Below, piece by piece: positions 11,862-54,980 of a stretch of DNA of 64,000 bases. A program made the translations under genes and the position numbers. The DNA lies in contig JAPXLN010000007.1 of NCBI GenBank assembly GCA_033809515.1, positions 9,348 to 73,347 on the forward strand, written 5' to 3'. How positions within the stretch are numbered: the first letter of the stretch is position 1; each line of letters begins with the position of its first letter. The notes below the pieces were generated by a model. It made no database searches, was not told the origin of the DNA, and saw only the letters and a program-made list of their open reading frames with translations. This stretch comes from Bacillota bacterium (GTDB lineage: Bacteria; Bacillota; Sulfobacillia; Fermentithermobacillales; Fermentithermobacillaceae).

Positions 11862-11872
11862 GTAGAATGACT

Positions 11873-11903
11873 TTCGGGGGGGATGTTGCTCATCCCTCCC
11901 GAA
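11873..11903 (+). terminator. Strong hairpin after the S-layer gene, with no U-tract
   Basis: 13-bp stem TTCGGGGGGGATG / CATCCCTCCCGAA. Confidence 0.6.
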
Positions 11904-11976
11904 TGGTTGGTGCTCACAGGCAGCATTGCCTTAATCGGGCCATAACTAAGGTCCAAATGAACCTGGAGGTTATGGA

Positions 11977-27107: not shown

Positions 27108-27830
27108 ATGTTGGACAGTCCTATCCTACGAACCGTTAACTTAAGGAAGTCTTTTTTCCTGGGCCGTACTATATACGCTGTTAATGACGTCAACCTTGCG
27201 GTCGATAAGGGCGAATTTGTGGTTTTGATGGGCCCTTCAGGAAGCGGCAAGAGCACCCTGCTTTCGCTTTTGGGCGGACTGGACAGACCCGACAGCGGCG
27301 ATGTCATCCTGGACGGACAAAGGTACGGAACTCTGTCTGAAAGCGGACTTGCCAGGATTCGCCGGCACAGAGTCGGGTTTGTCTTTCAGTTTTTCAACCT
27401 TATTGCTCACCTTACTGCCCTGGAAAACGTCATGCTTCCCATGCGTTTTGGCAAGCAGGGCAAAAGGGCCATGGAAGAGCGGGCCAGCTACCTTCTTGAG
27501 TCAGTGGGCCTGGCTGATAGGATGAACCATAAACCTTTGGAGCTCTCGGGCGGGGAGCAACAGAGGGTAGCCATTGCCCGGGCTCTAGCCAACGACCCGA
27601 GTGTAGTACTTGCCGACGAACCTACAGGCAACCTGGATTCCGCTACGTCTCAGGAGATCGGTGACATATTTCGCCGGCTTAATGAGGAAAACGGCCAGAC
27701 CTTCATAGTAGTATCCCATGATCCCCTAATCAAGACATGGTCCCATCGAGTCGTGGAGATGCTTGACGGTGAGATTGTGAGTTCCGCATTGGGTGGCAGA
27801 ACCAGAAGCACCAGATTGCCTGCTGGATAG
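27108..27830 (+). CDS. ABC transporter ATP-binding protein (MacB/LolD type)
   Basis: [37 protein letters not shown] and VSHD. Confidence 0.95.
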
Positions 27831-27844
27831 TGGAGGTGGAGTGA

Positions 27845-29578
27845 TTGCCCAAGGATGTTTTGCACGTGGATTTGGGTAGCGTAGTATCCAGAGCGAGCCT
27901 TCTGGAGGTTGTTTCAGATCGTCCGGTACTCAAGGAATCGGGGATCTGTCTGGTCCCCCAAGACCGGCAGGATGGGGAGTCTTTGAGACTGGAGACAATC
28001 CTTGGCGGAATCGAGGACAGGCTGAAAGCTCAGGGGAAGGCGTTTTCACCCGACAAGGTATTGGTGACTTTGAGCGCCCGGGGTGAGCCCCGAGCTGTCT
28101 GCGCCGGGGTTGTCAGGGGAATATCGGGTGAGTCGGCCAAACGCGCAGCTCTGTGTGCAGGAGCTACTGTGACCGATGTTCTTGCAGTCGATGACGGGAG
28201 GCACGATTCTGAAAGAGTATCGGATCTGCGCCGCCAGGACGTGACAATGGCCCTTTTTGCAGGTGGAGTTGATGAGAACATCCTGGGGTCAGGAAGGCAT
28301 CAGCTGTTCAGCATGGCAAGGATTCTAGCTCAGGGACTCCCCAGAAGGCGGGGCGGTTCTCGCAAGATTCCCCTGGTATATGCAGCTTCCCTGGAGGGGC
28401 GTGAGGAAGTTCAGAGAATTCTCGGGGAAGAAACAGATATTTTCTGGGCCGATAACGTAAGAGCTACGTTGGAAGAAGAGCGTCTTGACTCAGCCAGACA
28501 AGCTATGGTTGATATTTTCGCCGACCATGTGAGGCATGCTCCCGAATTTGGGGAGCTGGGCAAGCTTGGTTCGCCGGCGGTTCTTCCCAGCGGTCATGCC
28601 CTTGGTTGTGCCCTTGAAGCTATGTATGAAAACTGCGGCCAGAACCTTCTGGGTTTCTCGCTGGACGGTGACGTTGTACAGGTATTCTCGAACATAGACG
28701 GAGTATTCACCCGTACAGTGACGGGCATCGATAAGGTGGACCCCCGCAAGGCAGTAAGATGGCTTCCAGGAAGCAGCCTTGTGCCTCATGCTTCCGACGC
28801 AGTCAGCAATTTCAAACTCCGCCCATGGATGGTGCCGTCTTCCTGGGATGAGCTTGCTCTGTTCCTTGCCCTTTGGAAAGAAGCTATCAGAGAAGCTGTA
28901 GAGGAGCATAAGAAAAGCGCCGTGGAGCTTCGAGGTATCCCCAGGAAGAGGGAGATCTCTGAGGCGTTCCAGGTAAAGGTGTCAGGAGGTGACACCCTCA
29001 TCAAGGCCCAGAGAATTAGAGCAGTGGTCCTCTCAGGCTACGTTTCAGACATGCTTTCAGACAGCGCTCTTCTCTCGGTTGCCCTGGATGGTGTTCCCCT
29101 CAGCGGGTTTACCAGGTATTACAGGGATGCAGGAAACCTTCTGACATTTGCAGGATCTGTAAGCGGCCAGGAGTTTGTTGACCTGGAGACCTGTATGCGT
29201 CCTCTTGCTTTTGTGGCCAGTCCGGGCCCTCATGAGCAAAAGGTAAGAAGCAAGTGGGCTATTCTTCGAAAAGGCACCGAGACTGAAACTCTGCCTGTGA
29301 AGCCTGGCGAGATCGTACAGGCTTCCCTGGATGATTTCGGGGAAGCAAGCATCGTTTTGCAGCCGTCTCGAGGCGAGGATCTTGGTGAGGGAGAAGGCAG
29401 GCACGTAGAGACCCGGGTGGAACCCGGGTTTCCCGGATTGTACCTGGATTGCAGGCCCCGCCCGGCCGTCAGCGCAGCAGAGAAGGCCGGTATGGGCGCC
29501 GTACAGAAATGGTACAGGAATCTTGGGGTATTTCCAGAGAGAATCCTCTCTGACTGGTCGAGGGGGGAAGACCGGTGA
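27845..29578 (+). CDS. Glutamate mutase L (GlmL/MutL)-like ASKHA-fold protein, degenerate paralog
   Basis: Colinear with 36537..38339 (AALCAGATVTDVLAVDDGR vs AALGAGAIVGDVIALDDSR; LEELRGIPRKRE-like vs LKGIRPKRE), but the phosphate loops are degenerate. Confidence 0.75.
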   Translation: MPKDVLHVDLGSVVSRASLLEVVSDRPVLKESGICLVPQDRQDGESLRLETILGGIEDRLKAQGKAFSPDKVLVTLSARGEPRAVCAGVVRGISGESAKRAALCAGATVTDVLAVDDGRHDSERVSDLRRQDVTMALFAGGVDENILGSGRHQLFSMARILAQGLPRRRGGSRKIPLVYAASLEGREEVQRILGEETDIFWADNVRATLEEERLDSARQAMVDIFADHVRHAPEFGELGKLGSPAVLPSGHALGCALEAMYENCGQNLLGFSLDGDVVQVFSNIDGVFTRTVTGIDKVDPRKAVRWLPGSSLVPHASDAVSNFKLRPWMVPSSWDELALFLALWKEAIREAVEEHKKSAVELRGIPRKREISEAFQVKVSGGDTLIKAQRIRAVVLSGYVSDMLSDSALLSVALDGVPLSGFTRYYRDAGNLLTFAGSVSGQEFVDLETCMRPLAFVASPGPHEQKVRSKWAILRKGTETETLPVKPGEIVQASLDDFGEASIVLQPSRGEDLGEGEGRHVETRVEPGFPGLYLDCRPRPAVSAAEKAGMGAVQKWYRNLGVFPERILSDWSRGEDR

Positions 29579-30780
29579 GTCTGAGTTTACTTTGGGATCC
29601 AAAGGTAAGAAGAGGCCTTCGCTTTACCCGGTTGAGACCGTTCCTGGCCACAGGTGAGCTGAGCGTCTCTCCCGGCCAGGAGGTTTCCTGGGATACTGCT
29701 TTGGGGTCTTTCTCACCCAGTCAAAGGCTGAGGAGTGTTAGAGTAGAAGCTTCTGATGAGTCAATCACTGCTACTGTCCTTGTGGAAGAAGGCAAACAGG
29801 TCAAGCGCGGTGAGGTTCTTGCCTACTACTCCTACCTTTTCGGACTGGGGTACACTGAGTACATCTCGCCCTGCGATGGGGAGGTAGTAAGCGTCAGCCA
29901 GCGGTTAGGCCTTATCTCCATAAAGGAGGCTCCTGTGTCCCTGATTAGCCATCTCCCGGGCCGGGTTAAGACGGCCGAGGAAGCCTGGGGGGCCTGGGTG
30001 GAGTCAGAGGGCGACTTGCTGGAAGGGGCGGTAGGCGCCGGGCACGGCAGGTCCGGCATTCTGAACATCAAAGTTCAAGAACCCGGCAAGTCATTGCCAG
30101 GGTCCGCCATCAAGCCTGAGGATGCAGGAACAGTCGTGGTAACCGGTGGCGCAGCCACTCAGGACCTACTGGAAGCTTGTCTTCGCTACAGGGTGGCGGG
30201 GCTCATTGCGGGGGGAGTGAGTTACCGGGTCTTTCAATGGTACAGTGAGCTTGTAGAAACCCTTGACTGGGATGAATTTCTGGCTAGGTACTGGGCCAGG
30301 GATGCAAAAAGACCTGATACAGCTCCTTCTCCTATTGAGATCGTCCCTACCCTGGTTGTTACGGAAGGGTACGGTGAAGTGCCCATAGGCCAGGATGCTT
30401 TTGGGATGCTATCTGAGCATGCAAACCGTTCCGTTTTTGTGGACGGTGCCGGAAAACCTGGCAGATCCGGGTACGGTACGCCGAGACCCTGTGTCTTCAT
30501 TCCGGTGGAGGGGAAGACTGAGGACTCAGAAAGGGCAGCTATTCCAAGATCCCTAGCAGTTGACTGGGTGCAGGGCCAACCCAGAATTCCCGGAAGGGTT
30601 GCTCCCGGTGAGGCGGTTACCGTAATCGACATGTCCGGAAAAAGACAACCAGGTGTTCTGGTTGAATCTACTCCCCGGGAGATGGTCTTGGACAATGGAG
30701 TAGAGGCCTATTGCGTTAGAGTGCAAATGCCCGGCGGAGCTTTAAGGACTGTTCCTGTCTTCAACCTGATTTTGGAGTAG
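29575..30780 (+). CDS. Uncharacterised GlmL-partner protein with a barrel-sandwich-hybrid-like segment, paralog 1
   Basis: VEEGKQVKRGEVLA...SPCDGEVVSVS, TEGYGEVPI and a C-terminal KOW/SH3-like end; paralogous to 38347..39723. Confidence 0.65.
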   Translation: MSLSLLWDPKVRRGLRFTRLRPFLATGELSVSPGQEVSWDTALGSFSPSQRLRSVRVEASDESITATVLVEEGKQVKRGEVLAYYSYLFGLGYTEYISPCDGEVVSVSQRLGLISIKEAPVSLISHLPGRVKTAEEAWGAWVESEGDLLEGAVGAGHGRSGILNIKVQEPGKSLPGSAIKPEDAGTVVVTGGAATQDLLEACLRYRVAGLIAGGVSYRVFQWYSELVETLDWDEFLARYWARDAKRPDTAPSPIEIVPTLVVTEGYGEVPIGQDAFGMLSEHANRSVFVDGAGKPGRSGYGTPRPCVFIPVEGKTEDSERAAIPRSLAVDWVQGQPRIPGRVAPGEAVTVIDMSGKRQPGVLVESTPREMVLDNGVEAYCVRVQMPGGALRTVPVFNLILE

Positions 30781-30853
30781 TGTTAATGTACAGTGGCCCA
30801 GTGAGAGTCATGACGCGCCGGGAGGTCTGGTTGGGCAGGAGCGGTTTGGTCAC

Positions 30854-32866
30854 ATGAGGTCCAGCGACATATTTCGACTTAACGTGAAGGAACTTATGGC
30901 CAGTCAAGGTCTCAAAGTCAAGGACCTGGCTGATATGGTAGGCCTGAGTGCCTCATATTTGTCCTTGATTCTGTCAGGGGACCGGGGCAATCTAAGTGAC
31001 CTTCATAAGGATGCCGTGGCCCTTGCCCTGGGCACCACCGTATCGAGACTATATGCGCCTCCGGATGATGCGTTGTTTGGCACGGCGGAGAGACCTGCTG
31101 ACTATGGAAGACCTGCCCGGTTTGAAGAGAAGTCTCCGGGAGACGCCCTGTCTGAGACGGCCAGGTTCGATGGGAGAACGGTTGCCGCGACTCCCCTGCA
31201 AGGACGACCCAGAGATATCCGGGCCTTGGAGGATTTCCTCAACGTCCTGAACATCAGAGATCCTTACCTGCTCAAGGCGATTTACCGGGAACTCAATTAT
31301 CTGTCGGACAGGGAGGTGGCAAAGCTAGGGCAGGTACTTCTCAATGCCCTGGTCTCTTGGCAAGAGCAAGCAGGTGAAAGACAGCTCAAAGACGAGGGAA
31401 GAGGGGAAGGACCTCCGCCGAAGCTTCTGCCCCCGGAACCGGATCACCGCATAGTCCTCGGCCTTGTAGCTTTTCTTGTTCCCATACTGGGTCAGGTCTC
31501 GCCGGAGCTCTTGGAGGCTGCAACTTCCTGGTCACGTTCTCACGTCTATCAGGTTCTCGGAGGTTTGTTTTCTCTGGGACTTTTGCAGCCGGTGGAAACA
31601 TCAGCAGGCATGCTGCTTGATTTGCCGGACCGGAGCCGAACTCAAATGCTTAGAAACCTTATCTCAGGAGACCTGAGGAAAAACGCCGGCTTAGCTGTGG
31701 CGCGATCTTTGGCGCGAGCTTTCGAGGGCGGTACCCCCGGCCCCACCGAAGGACAGATCGGGGAGCTGTACCTTGAAGGCGGGGACCTCAATGCGGCAAG
31801 GCAGTGGTTAGGACGGGCGGCTGAATCGGCGTTTTCTGACCGTGCGTGGCATTTGACCAGGGGTTACCTGAGGCTTGTATTGTCTCTGGATACGGTTCTG
31901 AAAAGCGCTCCTGACAAGCGAACCATGGCGAACCAGATGATGGTCACAACCTGTCTGAACCTGGGGGATCTCGATCTTGCCCTGGCCTATCAGAAAGCAA
32001 ATATCGTATATTGGGAGAACGCTGATAATCGCGCTGACCTTGTTAGAGGATTGTCCATGCTAAGTCTGATTCTGGCCAGGAAGGGTCAGTGGGCCGCGGC
32101 TCTTGAGGAACTTGAGCGCGCCTTGAAGTTATCACAGGCAGGTTCCTCGCAAGAGGCGCGTCTAATGCTCAGTATTGCCGGCATCCACCTGCAAACCGGA
32201 TGGCTTCAACATGCCAAAGAAGAGTTTGACAGGGTGTTGGATTTTTCGGCCAGCTCCCAGGACTCGGGTATGATGGCGCAGGCATTGCTGGGTCTGGGGA
32301 GGGTTTATCTGGCCAGAGGTGATGCAGCCAGAGCTCGGACGTTCTTTAACAGAGGTCTGGCGTTGACGGAAAAAAGAGAGCTCGTGATAGAGGCCCAGAC
32401 CAGGCTTGAACTGGGCAAAGTACACTTTCTGAACGGACAGCACGGCCAATCGCGGTTTGAGCTGGAGAAGGCCCGCGGAGTACTGGAGAAAATCGGCGAC
32501 TCAGCGCTGGAGCACATGGTCAACGTTTGGCTTGCTAGGTGCCTGGCACGGTCAGACGTAAGAGCTGAGTGTGAAAAAGCACGATATTTGGCTGAAACTG
32601 CTTACGCCTATTTTGAGACGGTCCTTGACAAAGAAGGGACGGTGTTCTCCCTTCTGGCTCGTGCTGAGGTTGAGTCTGCGTTAGGGTCACACAGTGAAAC
32701 TTTTGCCCTATTTGGCGATGCCGTCAGAGTGGCAAGGGAATCAGGCAACCCGGCCCTGGAAAGTCACGCTGCAGGAGCGTTTGCTCTGTGGCTCCAGCGA
32801 GAAGGGGATGAGCTAGCTCCTGTCATGTTTGAGAGAAGCCGCTGGATTCAGGCGAAACTCCATTAG
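30854..32866 (+). CDS. XRE-family HTH plus TPR-repeat transcriptional regulator
   Basis: N-terminal LKVKDLADMVGLSASYLSLILSG HTH; central wHTH-like segment; TPR-like helical repeats in the C-terminal half. Confidence 0.8.
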   Translation: MRSSDIFRLNVKELMASQGLKVKDLADMVGLSASYLSLILSGDRGNLSDLHKDAVALALGTTVSRLYAPPDDALFGTAERPADYGRPARFEEKSPGDALSETARFDGRTVAATPLQGRPRDIRALEDFLNVLNIRDPYLLKAIYRELNYLSDREVAKLGQVLLNALVSWQEQAGERQLKDEGRGEGPPPKLLPPEPDHRIVLGLVAFLVPILGQVSPELLEAATSWSRSHVYQVLGGLFSLGLLQPVETSAGMLLDLPDRSRTQMLRNLISGDLRKNAGLAVARSLARAFEGGTPGPTEGQIGELYLEGGDLNAARQWLGRAAESAFSDRAWHLTRGYLRLVLSLDTVLKSAPDKRTMANQMMVTTCLNLGDLDLALAYQKANIVYWENADNRADLVRGLSMLSLILARKGQWAAALEELERALKLSQAGSSQEARLMLSIAGIHLQTGWLQHAKEEFDRVLDFSASSQDSGMMAQALLGLGRVYLARGDAARARTFFNRGLALTEKRELVIEAQTRLELGKVHFLNGQHGQSRFELEKARGVLEKIGDSALEHMVNVWLARCLARSDVRAECEKARYLAETAYAYFETVLDKEGTVFSLLARAEVESALGSHSETFALFGDAVRVARESGNPALESHAAGAFALWLQREGDELAPVMFERSRWIQAKLH

Positions 32867-33158
32867 AAGCTGTGCAACACTCTTCTTGTTTCCGCAAGTT
32901 GTTAGACAATTTACCTCCGGTCGTCAAGGGCGGTACAGCCTTTACGCTGGGAACCCCTAAGGGACTTGCTGCATGCGAAAGCAAACTGAGAGATGCGATT
33001 TTGCAGGGGACCTTTCGACCGGGTCGTGACATTGCTGTCAGAAAGCAAAATCAGGCAAGGGAAAGGCTCGTTGGTCATATGGTGTTGATGGGAGCAAGGA
33101 AATGCAGGAGTTAGGGCATAGGACAAAGAAACTTGTGAACTTGAGGGGGTGACCTGGA

Positions 33159-34610
33159 GTGGACTTCATTCGTTTGGCCGTAAGAGAAATCAAAAGAAAC
33201 TCAACCAGGACACTGATGGCATCTATGTCTATGGCCCTTGCAGCTATGATTTTGGTGCTGTCCAGGGTCATTCCCCAGGGGCATCCTGCCGGAACACTCC
33301 AGCCCGAGAGGAGCTTTGTCGGAGGCGATATTCTGATTTTCACGGCCCAGGCGCCTCTGGATGTCGCCTCAAGCGATGGTCTCATCTGGCGATGGTGGAC
33401 CGGCAGCGACTGGCAATCTCACGCCCTTTACTTTTTTCCGCACCTAGAGAATTCAGGATACCTGACGCCGGAAGGCCATCCGGGATGGCGCGCTCTGCTC
33501 TCCGGTGAACTGGTTGAGAGGGTCAAGAGTCTCCCTAATGTGGAGGCCGTTGAAGTCTACCGGAGCTTTCCATGTATCGTGCATGTAGACGGCCAGGAGA
33601 TTCCTGCTTTTCTGAGGGGAAGAGTTCCGGGCGAAGAGGGATATCCGTTGGACGCAATTCTTGCCGGTGGACGTGCTCTTAACGCTCAGGATAAGGAAGG
33701 ATTCGAGGCGCTTGTTCCTGCCCAGGGTCCTCTGAAGACAACAATTGAGGCAGGCAACACGTTCAGACTGGAATGCCCTGCTCTCAGGGTACGACCTCTT
33801 GCAGACTCCTATGGTTCAACCGGGTATGATGTAGATGTTTTTTGGGACTTGCCTTCTTTTGTTCAGCTTACAGCAGTAGGAAGCTACCAGGTGCCCGTAG
33901 GTGAAGAAGACGTTGATGTGCAGTCCGGTTCAGAAGGTGGAGCTCACCGTGTGACCAGCACTGTGTTCTGGCAGCGTCCGGAGATAATTGTGGATGACGT
34001 CACCTTCGCAGATATCCTTGGCAGCTCTTTGGCAGCTGCCGATTCCGAGTTTACGGAGCTTCCGGCGTATCAGATTGCCGTAAAGGTAAGTCAGATGTCT
34101 TTGGTGAAGCGAACGGTGGCCCAGATAAGAGACGTCCTTGGAGCTGGTTTTGCAGTCTACTCCATGCCGGACCTTGTAGCCTTACGAGCCAGGAGCTCGG
34201 ATCTTGCGCTTGTTTCCAGGGATTTTCGGGACGTATTGGTGGTGCTAACCTTTGGACTTTCGGCCACCATCGTTTCGGGTACCGTCTATATTCTTCTCAC
34301 TCAGCAGAGAAGGAAGATTGGACTTCTGAGGGTAATCGGCGCAACCCGAAAAAACGTTCTATCATACGCACTGTGGATAGTTGGATATGTAGTGCTGACA
34401 GGTTCTGCCATAGGATTCGGGGCAGGTAAGCTAATGTCACTGCTGGCATTGATCAGTTCTGACGCCACGTTCTCGCAATGGCTTGCACAAGCTTTTCGCG
34501 ACTTCCTGGATACTTTCGGCCTGGCTGTATCTCTGGCAGCGTTGTTCGGAACCATCACAGGGGTGTGGGCGTCAAGGATTCCCTGCGCGGAGGTGTTGAA
34601 ACGTGAATGA
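33159..34610 (+). CDS. ABC transporter permease (FtsX/MacB-like)
   Basis: N-terminal TM, large extracytoplasmic domain, and QQRRKIGLLRVIGATRKNV followed by three TMs. Confidence 0.85.
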   Translation: MDFIRLAVREIKRNSTRTLMASMSMALAAMILVLSRVIPQGHPAGTLQPERSFVGGDILIFTAQAPLDVASSDGLIWRWWTGSDWQSHALYFFPHLENSGYLTPEGHPGWRALLSGELVERVKSLPNVEAVEVYRSFPCIVHVDGQEIPAFLRGRVPGEEGYPLDAILAGGRALNAQDKEGFEALVPAQGPLKTTIEAGNTFRLECPALRVRPLADSYGSTGYDVDVFWDLPSFVQLTAVGSYQVPVGEEDVDVQSGSEGGAHRVTSTVFWQRPEIIVDDVTFADILGSSLAAADSEFTELPAYQIAVKVSQMSLVKRTVAQIRDVLGAGFAVYSMPDLVALRARSSDLALVSRDFRDVLVVLTFGLSATIVSGTVYILLTQQRRKIGLLRVIGATRKNVLSYALWIVGYVVLTGSAIGFGAGKLMSLLALISSDATFSQWLAQAFRDFLDTFGLAVSLAALFGTITGVWASRIPCAEVLKRE

Positions 34611-35316
34611 CTGGACGGGACCTATTGTGAAATGCGCCGAGCTGACCAGGTTCTACCCGGTGGGTGAAGGGTTTTTCGCTCTAAAGAACGTTCATCTTGA
34701 GATAAGCCAGGGGGAGTTTGTAGTCATCATGGGCCCTTCTGGCTCAGGGAAAAGCACGCTGCTGAACATACTCGGAGGGATAGACCGGCCTACTCACGGT
34801 GAAGTCATTCTCCAGGGCCGAAAATACTCCCGGATGTCCGAAGACGATCTTGCCATGATGAGGCGTCGTGAGATCGGTATGGTATTTCAGTTTTTCAACC
34901 TACTGCCTGAGCTAAATGCACGGGAGAACGTAGGTCTTCCTATGAGACTTGCAGGCTATGGAGGCAGGGAGATAGAGGACCGTGTCTCCTACCTGTTGGA
35001 AGCTGTGAAACTTACTGACAGAGAAGGACACTTTCCGTCGGAGCTGTCAGGCGGGGAACAGCAAAGGGTGGCAATAGCAAGAGCTCTTGCCTGCAGACCT
35101 GCGGTCATCCTTGCCGATGAGCCCACAGGCAACCTGGATACCGCTAACGGAAGAGAGATTATGGAGCTATTCTCAGCTTTTAACAAGGCGGAAGGTCAGA
35201 CTTTCGTAGTCGTTACCCATGAACCTGCTTTCAGGGAATACGCCGACACGGTGATTGGCCTGGTAGACGGCGAAGTCAAAGAGAGGGAATCAAGCTATGA
35301 AGGCAAGGGACGGTAA
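34603..35316 (+). CDS. ABC transporter ATP-binding protein (MacB/LolD type)
   Basis: [28 protein letters not shown] and VTHE. Confidence 0.95.
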   Translation: MNDWTGPIVKCAELTRFYPVGEGFFALKNVHLEISQGEFVVIMGPSGSGKSTLLNILGGIDRPTHGEVILQGRKYSRMSEDDLAMMRRREIGMVFQFFNLLPELNARENVGLPMRLAGYGGREIEDRVSYLLEAVKLTDREGHFPSELSGGEQQRVAIARALACRPAVILADEPTGNLDTANGREIMELFSAFNKAEGQTFVVVTHEPAFREYADTVIGLVDGEVKERESSYEGKGR

Positions 35317-36523
35317 CAGCAAAGGCAACCCGGGCCTCTTGAAGGTCTTCATAGGAATGGTTTTCCGCGGAATGCGGCAAAGACCCCTGGTAGCTCTATT
35401 CATCAGCCTCTCGGTTGCTCTTACGGTGGCGGTTTCAATCGTGGCTACTTCAGCGGTCAACATAGGAGCTCATAACCTGGGAAAAAGGGCTCTTGACCCG
35501 GGGTTCCCGTTCCATGGGTTGGTTGTTTTTTGGAATAGCCATGATCTTGACTCTTTCCAGGCAAAAAAAGACATTTGGAAGGAATCTGTGACCGTGTATG
35601 AGTTCCCCGTGGTCAAGGGCCAATCACAGTGCGGGGCATTGGTTATAGCCGGCATTGACGGCAGTTTGCCCGAAGGTGTTATCCGGCTGGAAGGGGAAGT
35701 TGCATGGCCTGGCCATGTCATTGAGGTTCGCCTGAAGGGGCCGGGAGCCAAACCCCTTATATGCACCTGGAAGGTGGCTGCCGTGGATTTAGGCCAGGGC
35801 AGGCCCGGCCATGAGATGCCTGCGGATGGGACCGGGGACATGGTCATTTCCCAAATAGGCATTCCCGGGTGGGGGGTAGTTAACCCGGAGAGTCTCAGGC
35901 ATTTTTGCGAGGATGGGACTGAACTTGCAGCAGGAGCCGGCATGGGAGTCTTGTTTGCGGGTGCAATCAGCCCTACGGAAGCAGGGACCGGGAAGCTTTT
36001 GAGGGATATCGAGTATCTGAGATATGAGTTTCCCGGTTGTACTGTGATTACAGGAGACAGCGGCAGGAGGATGCTGGAGAAAGCCGCCAGAACAGCTCTT
36101 GCGCCATGGCAGGTTTGTTCGTTTCTGGTTCTTCTGGCAGCGTCTGTAGGCGTGTCGTGTGTTCTTACGGCTTCTTTTTTGGGGAGAAAGAGGGCTCTCG
36201 GTATCTTGAAAGTCCTCGGTGCCACGCACCGGGATTACACGCACTTGATGCTGGTTGAAGGCATGTGTTTGGGCGGTCCCGGTATTCTGTTGGGTTTTCC
36301 TCTTGGTTTTTGGGCCTCTCACCTGGGATTTGGCAGAGTCATGGCAGGTACCGGGGGGCTTTTGGTTGCTGCTGTGGTCGGCCTTCTGACTGTGTTGTTA
36401 GGTGTGTACCTTCCGCTGAGACTTGTGCGTAACGCTACATGCGACCAGCTTTTGAACAATAAGCCTGTCTACGCCATGTCCAATCCATCATGCGCTCAGT
36501 GCGGTCTTTGCGGCGGATTCTAA
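35297..36523 (+). CDS. ABC transporter permease (FtsX-like) with a Cys-rich C-terminal tail
   Basis: RKRALGILKVLGATHRD motif, TM helices, and tail CDQLL...SCAQCGLCGGF. Confidence 0.8.
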   Translation: MKARDGNSKGNPGLLKVFIGMVFRGMRQRPLVALFISLSVALTVAVSIVATSAVNIGAHNLGKRALDPGFPFHGLVVFWNSHDLDSFQAKKDIWKESVTVYEFPVVKGQSQCGALVIAGIDGSLPEGVIRLEGEVAWPGHVIEVRLKGPGAKPLICTWKVAAVDLGQGRPGHEMPADGTGDMVISQIGIPGWGVVNPESLRHFCEDGTELAAGAGMGVLFAGAISPTEAGTGKLLRDIEYLRYEFPGCTVITGDSGRRMLEKAARTALAPWQVCSFLVLLAASVGVSCVLTASFLGRKRALGILKVLGATHRDYTHLMLVEGMCLGGPGILLGFPLGFWASHLGFGRVMAGTGGLLVAAVVGLLTVLLGVYLPLRLVRNATCDQLLNNKPVYAMSNPSCAQCGLCGGF

Positions 36524-36536
36524 AGGAGGGAGTGCC

Positions 36537-38339
36537 TTGATAAAGCGCATTCTTGCTGCTGATGTGGGCAGCACCACAACGAAGACGGTTTTGTTTCAAC
36601 ACGATGGCAGGCAATGGGTCTTTACGGCCAAGACGACGGCGCCGACTACGGTGGAGGCCCCTGACCTGGATGTCATGATCGGTCTGCGTAAGGCGCTGTC
36701 GAGGCTTGAGGACAGGTCTGGGGTTAAGCTCTTGGACGGTGCCAGGCTTGTGACACCCGCCCGGGAGGATGAGGGAGTCGACGTGTTTGTGGCTACGTCC
36801 AGCGCAGGCGGGGGCCTTCAGATGCTTGTGACCGGCCTCATGAAGAACATCACAGCTGAATCGGCACACCGGGCTGCTTTGGGCGCCGGAGCTATCGTAG
36901 GCGATGTGATAGCCTTGGACGATTCGCGTACGGTCATCGAACGGCTTGAAGCTATTCGGAAGTTCCGCCCTGACATGATCCTGGTTACAGGCGGCACAGA
37001 CGGCGGAAACATCTCAGAGGTGGCCGAGATCGCTGAGTATGTTTCCATGGCAAATCCTGAACCGAGATTCGGGAAGGATTTTAAGCTTCCGGTTATCTTC
37101 GCAGGAAACGTAGAGGCAAGAGACCTGATCAATGAAGCGTTTCACGACATAATTGACCTTACCTTTGCCGACAATATCAGGCCAGTGCTGGAACGGGAGG
37201 TTCTTGATCCTGCCAGGGGAGAGATTCACAGGTTGTTCCTGGAGCATGTGATGATGCACGCTCCTGGCTATACGACACTGAAGTCCTGGACGGAAGGAAA
37301 GATAAAACCTACCCCCATAGCGGTTGGGGATTTGCTGTCATGCCTGGCCGAGGACCGTTCCCACAACGTTCTTGGCGTTGACGTTGGCGGCGCAACCACA
37401 GACGTATTCTCGGTAATAGAAGGGACGTTCTACCGCACTGTTTCTGCCAACCTTGGCATGTCATACAGCATGGCAAATGTTATGGGCGAAGCCCGGCCCG
37501 AAGCGGTGCTGCGTTGGGTGCCGTGGGATGTCAGCGAGGACGCCATAAGAAACTGGAATTTCAACAAGATGATACGGCCTACAACTCTCCCTCAGACTAT
37601 TGAAGAGCTAGTACTGGAGCAGGCGGTTGCCCGCGAAGCCCTTAGGCTTTCACTTGACCATCACCGTTCTCTGGTAAGGGGCCTCAAAGGGATAAGGCCC
37701 AAGAGAGAGTATTTTGATATCTTTGACCAAAAAGGAACAGGGGAGACTCTGGTCAATTTGCTGGATACAGGCACCATTGTAGGTTCAGGAGGAGCACTCT
37801 CCTACGCCCCAAGGAAGAACCAGGCAGCTATGATTCTTATGGACGCATTTTTGCCCGAAGGCGTTACGGATCTATACGTTGATAACCAGTTTATGCTTCC
37901 CCACCTTGGAGCTTTGCTCGAGTTCCACCGGGATGCAGCGTGGGAGCTTATGACGAGCCAAGCTCTTCTTCCGCTGGGCACTTGTATTGCCCCTGTGGGC
38001 GGGCTTCCTTCCAAAGGAACGCCACTAGCCCGGGTTCATGTAGGGGATGACGTTTACCAGGTAATAGCAGGCGACATCCATGTTATTCAGGTGAAAGGCG
38101 AAAATACAGAAATCACTGTAGTGCCCAGGAAAGATATGGATGTGGGCATGGGCCGCGGGGAGCCGGTTGAGTTCTTGGCCAGGTGCGCTCACGCAGGTCT
38201 GTTTCTTGACGGAAGAGGACGTCCATTGAGACTGCCCAGGGATAGCGCGGGCCACAGGGCAGCTCTTCGGGAATGGTACCGCGCTATGAGTTTGTATCCT
38301 GAGGAAGTGCTCAGTCTGGGTCAATGGGAAGGAAGGTGA
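36537..38339 (+). CDS. Glutamate mutase L (GlmL/MutL)-family ASKHA ATPase, intact paralog
   Basis: DVGSTTTK, TSSAGGGL, GGTDGG, DVGGATTDVFS, RTVSANLGMSYS and GSGGALS motifs. Confidence 0.88.
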   Translation: MIKRILAADVGSTTTKTVLFQHDGRQWVFTAKTTAPTTVEAPDLDVMIGLRKALSRLEDRSGVKLLDGARLVTPAREDEGVDVFVATSSAGGGLQMLVTGLMKNITAESAHRAALGAGAIVGDVIALDDSRTVIERLEAIRKFRPDMILVTGGTDGGNISEVAEIAEYVSMANPEPRFGKDFKLPVIFAGNVEARDLINEAFHDIIDLTFADNIRPVLEREVLDPARGEIHRLFLEHVMMHAPGYTTLKSWTEGKIKPTPIAVGDLLSCLAEDRSHNVLGVDVGGATTDVFSVIEGTFYRTVSANLGMSYSMANVMGEARPEAVLRWVPWDVSEDAIRNWNFNKMIRPTTLPQTIEELVLEQAVAREALRLSLDHHRSLVRGLKGIRPKREYFDIFDQKGTGETLVNLLDTGTIVGSGGALSYAPRKNQAAMILMDAFLPEGVTDLYVDNQFMLPHLGALLEFHRDAAWELMTSQALLPLGTCIAPVGGLPSKGTPLARVHVGDDVYQVIAGDIHVIQVKGENTEITVVPRKDMDVGMGRGEPVEFLARCAHAGLFLDGRGRPLRLPRDSAGHRAALREWYRAMSLYPEEVLSLGQWEGR

Positions 38340-38346
38340 ACTTGAG

Positions 38347-39723
38347 ATGGCCATTTCATCCGGACTAAAGATAGTTGAGTCAACTCGTCTCAGAAGGGTT
38401 TGCCGGCTGGTTGTGCCAGGAGAGGTTCTTGTGGCAAAAGGGGACTTGGTTGAACCTGATACGGTAGTCGCCAGGGCAGAGTTCATGCAGGGCACCCCCT
38501 ATGTGGTGGACCTTAACGCAGAGCTGAAGCAAGTTGTCACTCCCGAGTTTGTTGACTCTGTATTGTTAAAGAAGGTCGGAGACAAAGTCGAGGCCAAAGA
38601 GGTGATTGCCAAGCACCAGAAGCGTTTTTGGTCAGAGATCACTGAGGCCAGGTCGCCTTGTACAGGAACTATAGAGTATATCTCAAGGATTCAGGGACGG
38701 GTGATCATCAGGGAAGATCCCAGATCTGCCAAGCCCATGTCTATTGTGGCTGCAGCGAGCAAGCTTGGGGTTTGGCCTCGTCTCTTGCGAATGTACACTG
38801 AAGTCAAAGAAGGCGACCAGGTGTTCGAAGGTCAAGTCATCGCTGCTGCGCCCGGTGTGGGCACAGTAGACTATGTCTATGCTCCTATGGCAGGAGTGGT
38901 AGAACGCATCTGCACCCAGACAGGAACAGTGACTATCGTCAGGCCCATAAAGCCTACGCAGGTTGTAGCTCACATTCATGGGCGTGTAGAGGAGATCATT
39001 CCGGATGCAGGGTGCATAGTCGGAGCTACAGGCTCGTATATGGAAGGCGTGTTCGGCATAGGCGGAGAAAGACACGGCGTCCTGGTAACATCCTCAGACG
39101 GCCCGGGCAGCATTTTAGACGAAGCCGGGGTTCCCGAGAACACAGAGGGAAAGATCCTGGTTGCCGGCTCTCTTGTTTCACTGGGTGCCATTCAGAAGGC
39201 ACGGCAGCGAGGTGCCACAGGCATAGTCACCGGAGGGGTCAACAATCTCGATCTGGTTCAGATCTTGGGCAAGGAAATCTCTGTAGGCATGACCGGACTG
39301 GAGGACGGCGTAGATTTCACTGTTGTGGTTATGGAAGGCTTTGGGGAGATGCCCATGAACGAGAGGGCATGGAGCATACTAGCTTGTGCTGCCGGGCGCC
39401 TGGCCTTTGTAGATGGCACGACCCAGATTCGCGCAGGGGTCATCCGACCGGAGATAATGATAAGTGAGGGCGCAGAGCTTCTGACTGAGGCAGAGCTTCC
39501 TGCTACCGGCGAGGAACGTCTCTTCACTTCCGTGTCTTTGCAAGTTGGCCAAAGGGTCAGGTGTGTCAGAGCTCCTTACTTTGGTCAATGGGGTGTTGTA
39601 CATGAGATTCCCCCTGAGCTTCAGGCAGTGGAAAATGAGGGCCTGATGGAAGTGGCCAGGGTGCATCTTGACGATGGTCGTCTTGTGACGGTTGCAGAAG
39701 CTAATCTTGAGGTGTTTGAGTAG
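38347..39723 (+). CDS. Uncharacterised GlmL-partner protein with two barrel-sandwich-hybrid-like repeats, paralog 2
   Basis: KKVGDKVEAKEVIA...SPCTGTIEYI and VKEGDQVFEGQVIA...APMAGVVERI repeats; MEGFGEMPM; C-terminal KOW/SH3-like region. Confidence 0.7.
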   Translation: MAISSGLKIVESTRLRRVCRLVVPGEVLVAKGDLVEPDTVVARAEFMQGTPYVVDLNAELKQVVTPEFVDSVLLKKVGDKVEAKEVIAKHQKRFWSEITEARSPCTGTIEYISRIQGRVIIREDPRSAKPMSIVAAASKLGVWPRLLRMYTEVKEGDQVFEGQVIAAAPGVGTVDYVYAPMAGVVERICTQTGTVTIVRPIKPTQVVAHIHGRVEEIIPDAGCIVGATGSYMEGVFGIGGERHGVLVTSSDGPGSILDEAGVPENTEGKILVAGSLVSLGAIQKARQRGATGIVTGGVNNLDLVQILGKEISVGMTGLEDGVDFTVVVMEGFGEMPMNERAWSILACAAGRLAFVDGTTQIRAGVIRPEIMISEGAELLTEAELPATGEERLFTSVSLQVGQRVRCVRAPYFGQWGVVHEIPPELQAVENEGLMEVARVHLDDGRLVTVAEANLEVFE

Positions 39724-39779
39724 TGGGCTGAGTGCTCTGGAAAAGGGCGGACGGGCCCCGGTTTGCGGGGGAGAATGCT

Positions 39780-40040
39780 ATGCGCAGGTGGAGGAAACCT
39801 CCCATTTGGGAAACTGAAGAATGGGAAAAGATGACCTGGGAAGAGAAGATGGATCTTTGGAAGCGGCACCGGAAGCACAATCTCGTCCTTGGATTCATAT
39901 TCATCACGGTTTTCATGGGAAGTCTTTCCTGGTTTCTTTTCAAAGACTCTTTGAGTCAATCAAGGGCACGATTCCTGATTCCCATAATCATGATAGTCCT
40001 GGGGACTTGTCTGTATCTTGGTCAGAACCTGATGGACTAA
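39780..40040 (+). CDS. Small two-TM membrane protein
   Basis: Trp-rich charged N-terminus and two hydrophobic segments; G-rich SD; last gene before the hairpin at 40086. Confidence 0.6.
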   Translation: MRRWRKPPIWETEEWEKMTWEEKMDLWKRHRKHNLVLGFIFITVFMGSLSWFLFKDSLSQSRARFLIPIIMIVLGTCLYLGQNLMD

Positions 40041-40085
40041 CCCTGTGGTTGATTACGATTAGGCAATCCTGCCCGGATTCACATA

Positions 40086-40125
40086 GCAAAGAGGCGGTAG
40101 AGCTATACTCCTGCCGCCTCCTTGC
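40086..40125. terminator. Hairpin between convergent genes, likely a bidirectional terminator
   Basis: GCAAAGAGGCGGTAG / CTGCCGCCTCCTTGC inverted repeat. Confidence 0.7.
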
Positions 40126-40148
40126 ATTGCCGACCGGTGTATCTTGTG

Positions 40149-40349
40149 TTACGCCATATCAGGCGATTCAGGGATGATCAACGCAGCCACAAAGTAGAGT
40201 ATTACTCCCGGCACAAAGCCTGTTACTGCTGTAATCAAGGCGAAGCCAAGCCTTACCAGGGTCTCGTCCACAGAAAAAAACTCTGCCAGACCTCCACAAA
40301 CACCTGAGATCATCCGTTTTGCCCTTGAGCGATACAGTTTCTTCTCCAT
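40149..40349 (-). CDS. pspC: PspC domain protein
   Basis: KKLYRSRAKRMISGVCGGLAEFFSVDETLVRL...LYFVAALIIP. Confidence 0.92.
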   Translation of the reverse strand: MEKKLYRSRAKRMISGVCGGLAEFFSVDETLVRLGFALITAVTGFVPGVILYFVAALIIPESPDMA

Positions 40350-40485
40350 CAAATTCTCCCCCTGCGCAGCCTCTTCATCTATGGTTCCACCGTCAAAACC
40401 ATATTACGCATATTCCTTCTTCGTGTAACAGACTCCCTTACGGAAGTTTAATTGTATGACAATTTGGCATGTGTCAAAATCCTTA

Positions 40486-47701: not shown

Positions 47702-48226
47702 ATGGAGTTCCGTGAAAGTGGACCGAAGCGGCAGGTAGATGCTTCAAGACTGTTGCCGAGGATAGCTCTTGTGGCCGCAGTCTATGTTCTTTTGACCGTG
47801 TTGCCCCCGTTCAACGCTCTTAGCTATGGTCCCCTGCAAGTACGGGTGGCAGAAGCCCTGTCGGTGCTCCCCTTTGTTTTTCCTTGGGCCGTCTGGGCCC
47901 TCTACTTAGGCTGTATCCTGGCGAACCTGGGGAGCCCCTTTTTTGTGTGGGACGTCACTTTGGGAGCCCTTGGTACGCTGGCTGCCGCTTTGCTGACCCG
48001 TAAGGTCAAGGCCAAGGCCCTGGCACCTTTGCCTCCAGTGATAGTCAACGCCCTGGTTGTTCCTACCTATATGGCGCCTCTTAGCGGTCTTCCTTACTGG
48101 TCAGCTGCGCTGTATGTGGCAGCGGGTGAGGTTGTTGCTTGTTACGGGTTGGGTTACCCTCTTCTGGTATGGCTTCTGAGGAACGAAGGCATCAGAAGCC
48201 TTTTGCAGGGCTCACCGAACGATTGA
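47702..48226 (+). CDS. queT: QueT-family membrane transporter
   Basis: SYGPLQVRVAEAL, GCILANLGSP and PPVIVNA. Confidence 0.85.
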   Translation: MEFRESGPKRQVDASRLLPRIALVAAVYVLLTVLPPFNALSYGPLQVRVAEALSVLPFVFPWAVWALYLGCILANLGSPFFVWDVTLGALGTLAAALLTRKVKAKALAPLPPVIVNALVVPTYMAPLSGLPYWSAALYVAAGEVVACYGLGYPLLVWLLRNEGIRSLLQGSPND

Positions 48227-48592
48227 GTCTACGCCGTTTCCGGCTCCCTCTATGGTGATTGTCATACGGTTAGGGATGCAGACAATGGTCTGGCCGGGTT
48301 TGGAGATCCAGCCTGTTCTTATGCATATGCGCTCCGGGCAGAAACCGGGCTCTTGAGGCGAAATCCTCACCTTTCCGGCCCCGTACTCAATGATGGCATG
48401 CCCGCCTGGAAGCCCTACTGTCCTGGCCGATATGTATGGTTCGTCTAGGGCTAACCGGGCCGATTCAGTCCCGTCTACTTTTACTACGGCTACGGTATTG
48501 CCTGTTGACAGTGGCATGTTCAGGAAGGTTGCCCACATACAGACGGCAAGGGTCAAACAGGCGATTATGATGGTAATGTCGCCTCTTTTCGT
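48212..48592 (-). CDS. NusG domain II-containing (Lin0431/DUF1312-like) membrane-anchored protein; start extended to an ACG codon
   Basis: CPERICIRTGWISKPGQTIVCIPNR signature. In-frame ACG-AAA-AGA-GGC-GAC (M-K-R-G-D) lies 7 nt after AAGGAGG; a TG-n-TATAAT is at 48612-48620. Confidence 0.8.
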   Translation of the reverse strand, partial: TKRGDITIIIACLTLAVCMWATFLNMPLSTGNTVAVVKVDGTESARLALDEPYISARTVGLPGGHAIIEYGAGKVRISPQEPGFCPERICIRTGWISKPGQTIVCIPNRMTITIEGAGNGVDSIVR

Positions 48593-48912: not shown

Positions 48913-49749
48913 ATGTTGAACCTGTTATATCTGGCGGCAGCGGCGCCCAAGCCTCCTAAGTGGGGGTTTCTCATTCCCGTTGACAACAACGGTTTTGCTC
49001 TGCTGTGGTCGATAGTTCAGGGGATCCTGGTGTACTACCTTATTAACCAGGCCAGAGCCGGTAAGCCCGTTCTGGAGATCAGAAAGATCACAGGAATGGA
49101 TGCTTTTGACGAAGCAATCGGCCGGGCCACTGAAATGGGCAGGCCTGTCCATATCTGTGACTACTCTGAAGGCCTGGGAGACTACGATACGTTTGCCTAC
49201 TGGTCGTTCCTGGCTCACGTGGCCAAACTGTGCGCTTCGTATGACACCAGGATTATTGTTAGCGACTCAAGCTATCTTTGCAACGCGGTCCACCATGAAA
49301 TCGTGAAGCAGGCGTATCTTGAGGCCGGACGTCCGGACGCTTACAACCCGGATGATGTGAGATACATTTCGGGCACTCAGTTCGCGTGGACCATGGGTGT
49401 GGCGGGGATGATAGGCCGCGATAAGCCGGCAGCCCAGTTCCTTGTCGGCTACTTCTATGCCGAGTCTCTTATTCTGGCAGAGGCGGGCAACCTTGTAGGA
49501 GCAATCCAGATTGCCGCCACTTCCAGCACCGCCCAGCTACCGTTCTTCGTGGCTGCGTGCGATTATACCATGATTGGTGAGGAGCTCTATGCCGGCGCGG
49601 CATATCTCTCCAAGGAGCCTGTTATCACCGGTTCCGTTATTACACAGGACATAGGGCGCTTTGTTGTCTACGCCTTCGTGATCATCGGTGCGATTCTGGA
49701 GACTGTGGCGCCTAAGGCCAACTTTATTAAGACCATGCTTAAATTCTAG
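48913..49749 (+). CDS. DUF6754-like membrane protein
   Basis: N-terminal TM; IRKITGMDAFDEAIGRATEMGRPV; QLPFFVAACDYTMIGEELYA; C-terminal TM. The family name is recalled from memory. Confidence 0.75.
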   Translation: MLNLLYLAAAAPKPPKWGFLIPVDNNGFALLWSIVQGILVYYLINQARAGKPVLEIRKITGMDAFDEAIGRATEMGRPVHICDYSEGLGDYDTFAYWSFLAHVAKLCASYDTRIIVSDSSYLCNAVHHEIVKQAYLEAGRPDAYNPDDVRYISGTQFAWTMGVAGMIGRDKPAAQFLVGYFYAESLILAEAGNLVGAIQIAATSSTAQLPFFVAACDYTMIGEELYAGAAYLSKEPVITGSVITQDIGRFVVYAFVIIGAILETVAPKANFIKTMLKF

Positions 49750-49811
49750 TGCCGTTCCGGCCCTGTTTTCGAGAAGACCGGGGATAGCACTCAGGAAGGA
49801 GGTGTATTGGA

Positions 49812-50468
49812 TTGCGTAGAGAAGTCCCGTATGTCATCATGGTGATTTTCGCGGTGTTTCGGGCTATTTGCGAGACAGTGCACCAGGTGGACTTGTTCAA
49901 TATGCCGGGCACGAACATCAACATTCGGACCGCCACCAGTTATGCCTTGAGTTTCATGGGCGTGGCGGGCATGTTCCTGGGCGTGCTTAACGTCACCAGG
50001 GTTCAAGTCAACGCCATAAAGCGAAGGCGCGAAAACTGGGTATTCAACGTTTGGCTCTTGATCTGCCTGTACCTGTATGGAGCATACGGCCTCTGGAAGA
50101 GTAACACCGATGAAACGTACCGCTGGATATACAACTGCGTGTTTACTCCCCTTGATGCGAGCATGTTCTCGATCCTGGCATTCTTCATAGCTTCCGCAGC
50201 CTACAGGGCTTTCAGGGTTAGGAATCTGGAATCCATTCTTCTTATGGCTGTAGGCCTCATTGTCATGCTCGCCAACGTTCCCATAGGCGACATGATCTGG
50301 GGTCCTGACGCCTGGCTCGGAGGCCTTATGGGAGTCAAGAGCTGGATATTAAAGGTGCCTAACGCTGCTGCGGTGAGAGGCATTCAATTGGGCATATTCT
50401 TGGGCGCTATGGCGACTAACTGGAGGGTGTTCCTGGGCATTGAAAGGCGACACCTGGGCGTAGAGTAA
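49812..50468 (+). CDS. Uncharacterised multi-pass membrane protein
   Basis: About six hydrophobic segments; SMFSILAFFIASAAYRAFRVRN; VPNAAAVRGI. Confidence 0.8.
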   Translation: MRREVPYVIMVIFAVFRAICETVHQVDLFNMPGTNINIRTATSYALSFMGVAGMFLGVLNVTRVQVNAIKRRRENWVFNVWLLICLYLYGAYGLWKSNTDETYRWIYNCVFTPLDASMFSILAFFIASAAYRAFRVRNLESILLMAVGLIVMLANVPIGDMIWGPDAWLGGLMGVKSWILKVPNAAAVRGIQLGIFLGAMATNWRVFLGIERRHLGVE

Positions 50469-50522
50469 GATTTCGCTGCTCTGAAGAAACTTTGAGGATT
50501 TCTCCGAAGGGAGGGAAAACGC

Positions 50523-51365: not shown

Positions 51366-51397
51366 ATGACCGGTAAAGAGAAAGGAGGTGAAAATCC

Positions 51398-52704: not shown

Positions 52705-52711
52705 TTCCTGG

Positions 52712-53173: not shown

Positions 53174-53278
53174 CCACGCAAGCCTCCTGTTTCTCCTGAT
53201 CCCGTGGGCCGAGATGCTCAGCCTTTCGAATACTATCATATCTTATCCGTCATCATAATAGGCTTTCTTTGAGACGAG

Positions 53279-53995: not shown

Positions 53996-54002
53996 CCAAT
54001 CT

Positions 54003-54917: not shown

Positions 54918-54980
54918 TTGTATGCACCGGGTTATAATGTAAGATAAGGGAATGATGCAGGCGTTTCATAGCCCGGCACT

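Follow-up and report, generated by a model that had tools for sequence, protein, structure and literature searches.

The GlmL or MutL protein (NF040745, PF13941) has an acetate and sugar kinase/Hsp70/actin (ASKHA) core and is encoded with glutamate mutase, as in the glmS-glmL-glmE-methylaspartase operon of Peptoclostridium acidaminophilum. The first-pass annotation of the DNA studied here had taken GlmL to be known only with glutamate mutase, which is too narrow, as relatives also lie beside ornithine aminomutase (NCBIfam NF040744). The acetone and acetophenone carboxylases, whose HyuA-type subunits are ATP-binding, are multi-subunit ATP-dependent enzymes, one of them with a degenerate paralogous subunit. 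PilM and FtsA, also of the ASKHA fold, dock on short cytoplasmic tails of bitopic membrane proteins. The ATP-binding cassette (ABC) transporters MacAB, LolCDE, FtsEX and YknXYZ (type VII, mechanotransmission) combine nucleotide-binding domains (NBDs) of the LolD/MacB/FtsE type with FtsX permeases that have four transmembrane (TM) segments and a large extracytoplasmic domain. Here, a cluster of ten genes at 27108-40040 of a 64-kb window (the whole stretch of DNA analysed, 64,000 nucleotides of contig JAPXLN010000007.1 from a Bacillota bacterium) is compared with these systems. The cluster encodes two GlmL-like proteins, G1 and G2, each followed by a partner protein, P1 and P2, together with a MacB-type ABC set and a putative regulator, and a four-gene membrane cassette that recurs with G and P in other phyla lies downstream of it.

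The G-P module and its distance from glutamate mutase

The ASKHA ATPase G2 (36537-38339, + strand, 600 aa) matches PF13941 over its full length with 377 bits and an E-value of 1.2e-112, where the gathering threshold is 27 bits, and contains intact ASKHA motifs (DVGSTTTK, DVGGATTD and GSGGALS, corresponding to the DxGxT, DxGG.T.D and adenosine GG patterns). On the three NCBIfam models of the GlmL family it scores below every cut-off (217 vs 475, 205 vs 600 and 162 vs 204 bits). The genuine GlmL has 461 aa, is 26-32% identical to G2 and aligns only to its residues 1 to ~475-497. Because G2 falls below all the curated cut-offs and has such low identity to genuine GlmL, the G2-type proteins are assigned, by sequence, to a separate subfamily of PF13941, distinct from GlmL. 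The AlphaFold2 (AF2) monomer model of G2 (pLDDT 87.5, pTM 0.89) has the ASKHA fold with an extra C-terminal beta domain (477-560) plus helices. Its top structural matches are the ATP-binding subunits of acetophenone and acetone carboxylases (5svc_B, 5l9w_B; E 8e-11 to 1e-8), followed by Hsp70, PilM and FtsA (both E ~1e-6, TM-score relative to target 0.40-0.45), sugar kinases and the diol dehydratase reactivase DdrA (2d0o, E 4e-6). A sequence search of the PDB with G2 returned no full-length relative.

Neither a B12-binding domain nor a mutase E domain was found by Pfam in any large open reading frame (ORF) of the window. With the P. acidaminophilum operon as the positive control, tblastn with genuine GlmS, GlmE and methylaspartase gave 0 matches in the window and in 89 loci of G homologues (1.5 Mb), where the genuine GlmL of the same set matched 88 loci. 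The claim that the cluster lacks mutase subunits is therefore upheld in the window and in the survey of 89 loci of G homologues, and the case in which close homologues would always lie beside mutase subunits, named beforehand as one of those that would speak against a new system, was not seen. On these searches, G is independent of glutamate mutase and is most probably not a reactivase of a B12-dependent mutase, and thousands of genomes, according to this analysis, over-annotate G by naming it "glutamate mutase L" or "methylaspartate mutase".

The partner P2 (38347-39723, + strand, 458 aa) is encoded 7 nt from G2. Its AF2 monomer model (pLDDT 87.8) has no full-length structural relative and is predicted to contain two barrel-sandwich hybrid domains, an alpha/beta (PA-like) domain and a C-terminal KOW-like barrel, with fold or sequence matches only at the level of domains: RpoC2 SI3, domain II of Thermotoga maritima NusG, the N-terminus of NqrA, the PA domain of ZNRF3 and the KOW domain of Spt5. 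The first partner, P1 (29575-30780, + strand, 401 aa; 276 bits on the partner profile), is a short form with a single N-terminal barrel-sandwich domain and is a paralogue of P2 (27% identity, E 9e-19). Pfam gave the partners weak barrel-sandwich matches only (Biotin_lipoyl, RnfC_N, NqrA_N), and PDB sequence searches with P2 and with the P profile returned KOW and lipoyl-like domains only, with no full-length relative. The invariant residues in the P alignment are mostly glycines, and none is a lysine able to carry lipoate or biotin; no TM segment or signal peptide was predicted in P1 or P2. Homologues of P amount to 3734 representatives at 50% clustering, every one of them unnamed.

The scan for G, limited to a single genome for each species, gave at least 572 species, and 80 loci were kept. 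These span about 25 phylum-level groups, including Nitrospirota, Planctomycetota, Latescibacterota, WOR-3, Zixibacteria, Poribacteria, Armatimonadota, Ignavibacteria and Marinimicrobia, with G about 50% identical to G2, and G2 matches more than 8000 protein clusters. Nitrospira, Chthonomonas, Capsulimonas and Ignavibacteriales are among the taxa with relatives. In archaea, a G locus was found in a Methanomethylicia archaeon and P in Bathyarchaeia. The clustering of neighbouring ORFs gave the recurrent order [c11]-[c2]-G-P-c3-c4-c6-c5, in which c2 and c11 are accessory families. P is directly 3' of G in 48 of the 69 loci with enough flank and anywhere in the locus in 57, and the two genes commonly abut or overlap. 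Furthermore, a metagenomic protein of 995 aa (P0309) is an in-frame G-P fusion, with G at residues 9-604 (47% identical to G2) and P at 715-993. By its gene order and this one natural fusion, G-P is a conserved two-gene unit, in agreement with the first-pass view of the GlmL-like gene and its partner as a self-contained module. Over-long G ORFs in some high-GC loci are start-codon artefacts and were rejected as further gene fusions. An extra orphan gene, c14 (~260 aa), lies between G and P in Ignavibacteria, Calditrichota and Zixibacteria.

The G-P module, with or without the cassette, is directly 3' of gcvH, gcvP1 and gcvP2 in 11 loci of at least four phyla (L003, L008, L009, L013, L017, L036, L073, L076, L077, L081 and L084), and in some of them, such as L009, L036 and L077, the gene for lipoate-protein ligase (lplA) follows. 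In Bacillota, the G-P genes adjoin the purine operon, which consumes glycine. This placement may hint at glycine or one-carbon metabolism.

The DUF6754 cassette and the twin arrangement in Bacillota

All four of c3, c4, c6 and c5 were present in 32 of the 50 loci with at least 6 kb downstream of G-P, and none in the other 18, so that, from the side of G, the pair shows strong linkage to a rigid membrane cassette of four genes. The window also has this cassette in the canonical order c3-c4-c6-c5, 9 kb downstream of the ten-gene cluster, past the purine operon and QueT, between a NusG_II gene (48212-48556, - strand) and two orphan genes on the - strand (52069-53239); neither c2 nor c11 was found in the window. 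The first-pass annotation had already flagged the proteins of 48913-52006 for a check together with the GlmL-like proteins, and the cassette profiles identified them as c3, c4, c6 and c5, all on the + strand. The DUF6754 membrane protein c3 (48913-49749; PF20539, 4.6e-91; cassette profile, 3.5e-100) has a TM segment, a highly conserved domain of ~200 aa and a second TM segment. The conserved domain follows the K/R-rich stretch after TM1, which places it in the cytoplasm by topology, and it contains the invariant motifs GRATEMG, AESL.LAE.G, GAIQ and QxPFF..CDY, with many invariant polar residues. Outside Bacillota, c3 also has a signal peptide and an external Fn3 domain before the first TM segment, which were lost in Bacillota; only this Fn3 domain was matched in a PDB search with c3.

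The other three are membrane proteins of orphan families. The polytopic c4 (49812-50468; 5.6e-54 on its cassette profile) and c5 (51398-52006; 5.5e-44) are unrelated in sequence, and a homologous pair such as NqrD/NqrE was thus rejected. Between them, c6 (50523-51365; 9e-66) has an extracytoplasmic domain of ~220 aa flanked by two TM segments and preceded by a cytoplasmic DRR motif. No Pfam family was found for c2, c4, c5, c6 and c11, and no PDB relative for c4, c5 and c6; a relaxed member-by-member Pfam scan of c6 gave scattered chance matches only.

A reverse survey, in which metagenome contigs were searched with c3, had c4, c6 and c5 following c3 in 61 of the 71 copies with room for them, and the sole other recurrent family beside the cassette was G/P. 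The cassette is repeated two or three times in tandem in 13 loci of this survey, and in some diderm phyla it is near genes for TonB-dependent receptors, ExbB and solute-binding proteins. Tandem cassettes (two or three) with a single G-P pair occur in L028, L039, L103, L115, L127, L135, L141, L152, L161 and L169, an arrangement that resembles arrays of substrate-specific transporter paralogues. From the tandem arrays and a loose linkage on the cassette side, a single G-P module may serve several cassette paralogues.

The ten ORFs of the cluster were all found on the + strand at the positions first given, co-oriented and mostly abutting or overlapping as described, and Pfam agrees with their assignments. 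The intergenic spacing is from -20 to +14 nt, with the exceptions of the 73 nt before and the 292 nt after the HTH-TPR gene. The first gene encodes ABC ATPase 1, a MacB/LolD-type NBD (27108-27830; PF00005, 6.4e-35), whose ORF begins with a GTG at 27090 and whose likely start is the ATG at 27108. It is followed by G1 (27845-29578, + strand, 577 aa) and P1, the start of which overlaps the G1 stop by 4 nt. G1 is a divergent GlmL-like ASKHA protein, paralogous to G2 over the full length (28% identity, E 2e-58). It matches PF13941 in its N-terminal half only (127 bits) and scores 67 bits on NF040745 (cut-off 475) and 56 bits on TIGR01319 (cut-off 204). The G1-type proteins form 36 clusters, all from Bacillota metagenome-assembled genomes (MAGs), and in 36 of 36 members the phosphate-1 lysine, GGGLQ, the phosphate-2 DxGGATTD, the ANLGMSYS loop and the adenosine motif are all gone, with conserved replacements of their own at these positions. 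As the ASKHA patterns that G2 retains are lost in every member, G1 is probably a long-maintained, non-catalytic paralogue, a pseudo-ATPase. The duplication of the pair that had been proposed from the window is borne out by the G and P paralogies; however, the twins are not equivalent. In a neighbour-joining tree, G1 is a long branch outside all G2-type sequences, which does not place its origin.

The HTH-TPR gene (30854-32866, + strand) encodes a putative regulator of 670 aa, an accessory part of the cluster, with an XRE-type HTH (HTH_3, 2.8e-6) and several TPR families. It has a weak AimR match and is far longer than typical RRNPP members, and no conserved small peptide ORF was found in the gap after the gene across four relatives. 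The next three genes encode FtsX/MacB-type permease a (33159-34610; PF02687), ABC ATPase 2 (34603-35316; PF00005, 6.7e-37) and FtsX/MacB-type permease b (35297-36523; PF02687), all on the + strand, with the ATPase gene overlapping the permease genes on both sides. The two ATPases are 55% identical with intact Walker A, signature and Walker B motifs, and the best NCBIfam matches of ABC ATPase 1 were LolD, MacB and FtsE, none of which reached its cut-off. Both permeases share the topology of TM1, an extracytoplasmic stretch (~320 aa in a) and three C-terminal TM segments, so that the set has the NBD motifs and the FtsX permease of four TM segments, with a large extracytoplasmic loop separating TM1 from TM2, that define the MacB type. 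As permeases a and b are barely similar in sequence, the transporter is probably heterodimeric. No HlyD gene for a membrane-anchored adaptor (membrane-fusion protein) was found in the cluster, and P1 and P2 have only lipoyl-like barrel matches. The C-terminus of permease b is a cysteine-rich tail (...SNPSCAQCGLCGGF), unusual among FtsX-family permeases.

After P2, the last gene (39732-40040, + strand; the Met at ~39780 is the likely true start) encodes a small protein with two hydrophobic segments and no Pfam family; its membership in the c2 family was rejected. It is kept after P2 in the closest relative, L088 (55% identity), and in the Bacillota MAG L089 (39%), and is thus a genuine gene. 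L089 has no ABC genes, and the small 2-TM protein therefore belongs with G2-P2 rather than with the ABC set. The "terminator" annotated after this gene is a strong GC-rich hairpin (40086-40125; fold of 40036-40150, -39.5 kcal/mol, z -3.0) in the convergent gap between the small 2-TM gene and PspC (40149-40352, - strand); the hairpin stood, but its + strand is without a T-run, and the terminator scan made no call there.

An ABC ATPase gene is directly 5' of G1-P1, within ~15 nt, in every relative examined, and the ABC-G1-P1 order is conserved down to 45% identity of G1. A simpler state was found in L089, with IMPDH, G, P, the small 2-TM gene, PspC and pur in this order, and the ABC set is absent from L089 and from all other phyla. 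In two Clostridia loci (L010 and L097), where ABC genes are absent, a pair of intact G-P modules comes directly after the cassette. By these comparisons, the twin arrangement is derived and asymmetric, with the ABC set attached only in one Bacillota lineage. Across phyla, the recurrent membrane partner of the module is the DUF6754 cassette and not the MacB-type ABC set, which is limited to that lineage (36 clusters). The HTH-TPR protein has the predicted domains; however, it is a dispensable part of the system, present in L085 (split), L087 and L088 and missing in L001, L002 and L086. In L086, ABC ATPase-G1-P1 is alone at the site (9272-12903), without permeases and without G2-P2, and either the rest of the set may be elsewhere in the genome or the trio may work alone.

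Upstream, the cluster is flanked by the genes for IMP dehydrogenase and a polysaccharide deacetylase, and downstream by PspC (- strand) and the purine biosynthesis operon. The PspC-domain gene converges on the end of the cluster and keeps this position in all the Bacillota relatives examined, including those without ABC genes. The region 3' of the cassette (53279-61830) includes an M23 peptidase, an M50 peptidase, a radical SAM/DUF2344 protein, RNase G and Obg. It resembles the spoIVFA-spoIVFB...obg region of Bacillus, in which mreBCD-minCD are located just upstream; the cassette and the two orphan genes hold the position that mreBCD-minCD hold in Bacillus. The first part of the window (1-23800) contains envelope polysaccharide genes (GT2, Wzy-like, Wzz, CpsB and a tyrosine-kinase-like ATPase), as well as genes for an SLH-domain protein, a GH18 protein and a chemotaxis block (CheA, CheB, CheR and CheX), with one tRNA at 4595-4668.

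Proposed mechanism and competing explanations

Here it is proposed, with a probability of about one half, that the region is a lineage-specific elaboration of an ancient ASKHA-ATPase/adaptor module that serves membrane complexes. In the proposed mechanism, G and P would work as a cytoplasmic heteromer, as suggested by the gene order and the one fusion, and the binding and hydrolysis of ATP would bring the two lobes of G together in the manner of Hsp70, sugar kinases and actin. Through P, this movement would reach the cytoplasmic domain of c3 that is conserved, and the c4/c5 membrane core, with the outward-facing domain of c6, would convert it to substrate transport or to mechanical work on the envelope. 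Transport or envelope work seems the likeliest output, from the tandem cassette arrays, the outward Fn3 and c6 domains, and the TonB-dependent receptor, ExbB and solute-binding neighbours. The second pair, G1/P1, would have arisen in the Bacillota lineage, where G1 lost its catalytic motifs and the pair was fixed directly behind an ABC ATPase gene, inside the operon of a heterodimeric MacB-type transporter and sometimes with an HTH-TPR regulator. G1/P1, itself non-catalytic, could then connect the G2/P2 machine with the ABC transporter as a scaffold or a regulator, possibly via a G1-G2 heterodimer.

A broader claim, to be taken as tentative and somewhat less probable than the above, is that G-P with the cassette is an unrecognised ancient ATP-driven membrane machine, a primary transporter or an envelope engine, built on an actin/Hsp70 fold instead of a P-loop, found in about 25 bacterial groups at phylum level and in two lineages of archaea, absent from the standard model organisms, and here joined physically to a MacB-type ABC transporter by a pseudo-ATPase adaptor pair.

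Several observations weigh against this proposal. Seen from the cassette, the linkage that is strong from G becomes loose, with G or P nearby in only 6 of the 28 loci that extend 4 kb or more upstream. The cassette is missing at the syntenic site of the closest relative (L088, 19470-21070), where the flanking genes are adjacent, so that it was either inserted at 48913-52006 in the window or deleted in L088. No riboswitch was found in the window or in seven related loci, and no other feature pointed to a substrate. The models of G2 and P2 were made as monomers, the role given to G1/P1 is conjecture, and the best structural matches of G2, the ATP-dependent carboxylase subunits, fit an enzyme as well as a motor.

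This last point leads to the main rival explanation, in which G-P would be a soluble ATP-dependent metabolic enzyme of the hydantoinase, oxoprolinase or acetone carboxylase type and the cassette or the ABC set would import its substrate or export its product. In addition to the carboxylase folds, a match of G2 to Hydantoinase_A is just under the cut-off (22.5 vs 22.9 bits, over 35 residues), identities of about 50% across phyla are typical of enzymes, and both the 11 loci within glycine-cleavage operons (gcvH, gcvP1, gcvP2, module, lplA) and the purine genes next to the module in Bacillota would suit a metabolic coupling. However, there is no gene for a HyuB-type subunit or a carboxylase alpha or gamma partner, P is made of adaptor-type domains whose invariant residues are mostly glycines, the cassette is all-or-none in the loci, and the long retention of a catalytically dead G1 better suits a structural role. 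We consider this explanation unlikely, although it deserves to be kept in view.

The remaining readings are less likely. The ABC set and the HTH-TPR protein could form a MacB-type system of their own, for export or immunity (of or to a peptide, for example), with an RRNPP-like regulator, inserted beside G-P without a functional link. This would account for their absence from L089 and from all other phyla, for the resemblance of the NBDs to those of bacteriocin, darobactin and DevA exporters, and for the HTH_3 and TPR domains, an RRNPP architecture, in a protein with a weak AimR match. It is nevertheless improbable, as ABC ATPase 1 is without a permease of its own and is always followed within ~15 nt by G1, which is found nowhere else, the two sets of genes alternate, with stop codons overlapping the next start codons, instead of forming separate blocks, and neither a conserved small peptide ORF after the regulator nor a membrane-fusion protein is present.

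Alternatively, G could form actin-like filaments or a scaffold in the way of PilM, FtsA or MreB and so hold the cassette and the ABC transporter in position, and ATP would then regulate its polymerisation instead of transport. The small membrane proteins that accompany G-P (c2, c11 and the 2-TM protein here) would be suitable docking sites of the kind used by PilM and FtsA, both of which are among the folds matched by G2. The analogy to PilM, FtsA and MreB drawn in the first-pass annotation holds for the ASKHA fold but not for a specific likeness, since the closest folds are carboxylase subunits and Hsp70 and the PilM and FtsA matches are no better than those to Hsp70 or sugar kinases and weaker than those to the carboxylases. 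Furthermore, there is no amphipathic membrane-targeting helix or FtsZ-type partner, and polymerisation is not known among GlmL or hydantoinase relatives, which makes this reading decidedly improbable.

A GlmL/EutA/DdrA-type reactivase (Hsp70-like) for an adenosylcobalamin or radical enzyme elsewhere in the genome, with P as its small subunit, is very improbable: G belongs to PF13941, the alpha subunit of diol dehydratase reactivase is among its folds, and the known reactivases DdrAB and PduGH are two-subunit ATPases, but GlmS, GlmE and methylaspartase gave no match in the 1.5 Mb examined, the window is without a B12-binding domain, G2 stays under every curated cut-off for GlmL and Or-4, G has an additional C-terminal domain, the conserved neighbours are membrane proteins, and P is unlike DdrB. 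An anti-phage defence system was rejected, as the PADLOC models gave no match for G1, G2, P1, P2, c3 or c6, with only generic ABC and HTH similarities, and G2 had no match among phage sequences.

Comparison with known systems

Full-text literature searches returned nothing relevant on this PF13941 subfamily, on DUF6754 or on the cassette, which, with the lack of a solved relative, agrees with the first-pass view of a new, uncharacterised system. Pfam has no family for five of its seven recurrent components and a DUF for one more, and a relative of solved structure was found for none of them, yet the module and the cassette are about 50% identical across phyla as distant as those of nitrite oxidisers, relatives of anammox bacteria, Planctomycetota and numerous candidate phyla. 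Should the membrane-machine reading be true, it would represent a new principle for energising membrane complexes, and a sizeable part of microbial dark matter would gain a function. As a natural experiment, the twin version, with a dead ATPase paralogue beside an ABC ATPase, could reveal how the module is coupled to its membrane partners.

As in GlmL/MutL, G has the Pfam family, the ASKHA core and the phosphate-1, phosphate-2 and adenosine motifs. It differs in its length (600 vs 461 aa), in the extra C-terminal beta domain and in its identity of 26-32%. GlmL lacks a P partner, which 57 of the 69 G loci have, and G is not beside glmS or glmE in the loci examined. The HyuA-type subunits of acetone and acetophenone carboxylases, the best match of G2, are only ~0.3 in global TM-score, no HyuB-like gene is found here, and the neighbours of G-P are membrane proteins instead of catabolic genes. 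PilM and FtsA share with G the ASKHA fold, the cytoplasmic location and small or bitopic membrane neighbours, although no specific likeness extends past the fold, and genes for a pilus or a divisome are absent near G.

The N-terminus of NqrA and RnfC is the nearest counterpart on the side of P, in which an alpha/beta domain likewise comes after an N-terminal barrel-sandwich hybrid (NqrA fold probability of 0.99); like NqrA, P is soluble and encoded beside polytopic membrane subunits. However, only ~130 residues align, motifs for Fe-S or flavin are absent from P, and c3-c6 bear no relation to NqrB-E or RnfA-G. In comparison to MacAB, LolCDE, FtsEX and YknXYZ, with which it shares the NBD type and the permease topology, the cluster has two different NBDs and two unlike permeases, reaches no family cut-off and encodes no membrane-anchored fusion protein, with P1 and P2 having only faint BSH_YknX-type matches and no TM segment; to our knowledge, ABC genes interleaved with ASKHA proteins have not been described for the MacB-type class. 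Taken as a whole, the G-P-cassette system matches no described system, and its ABC part is of an ordinary kind.

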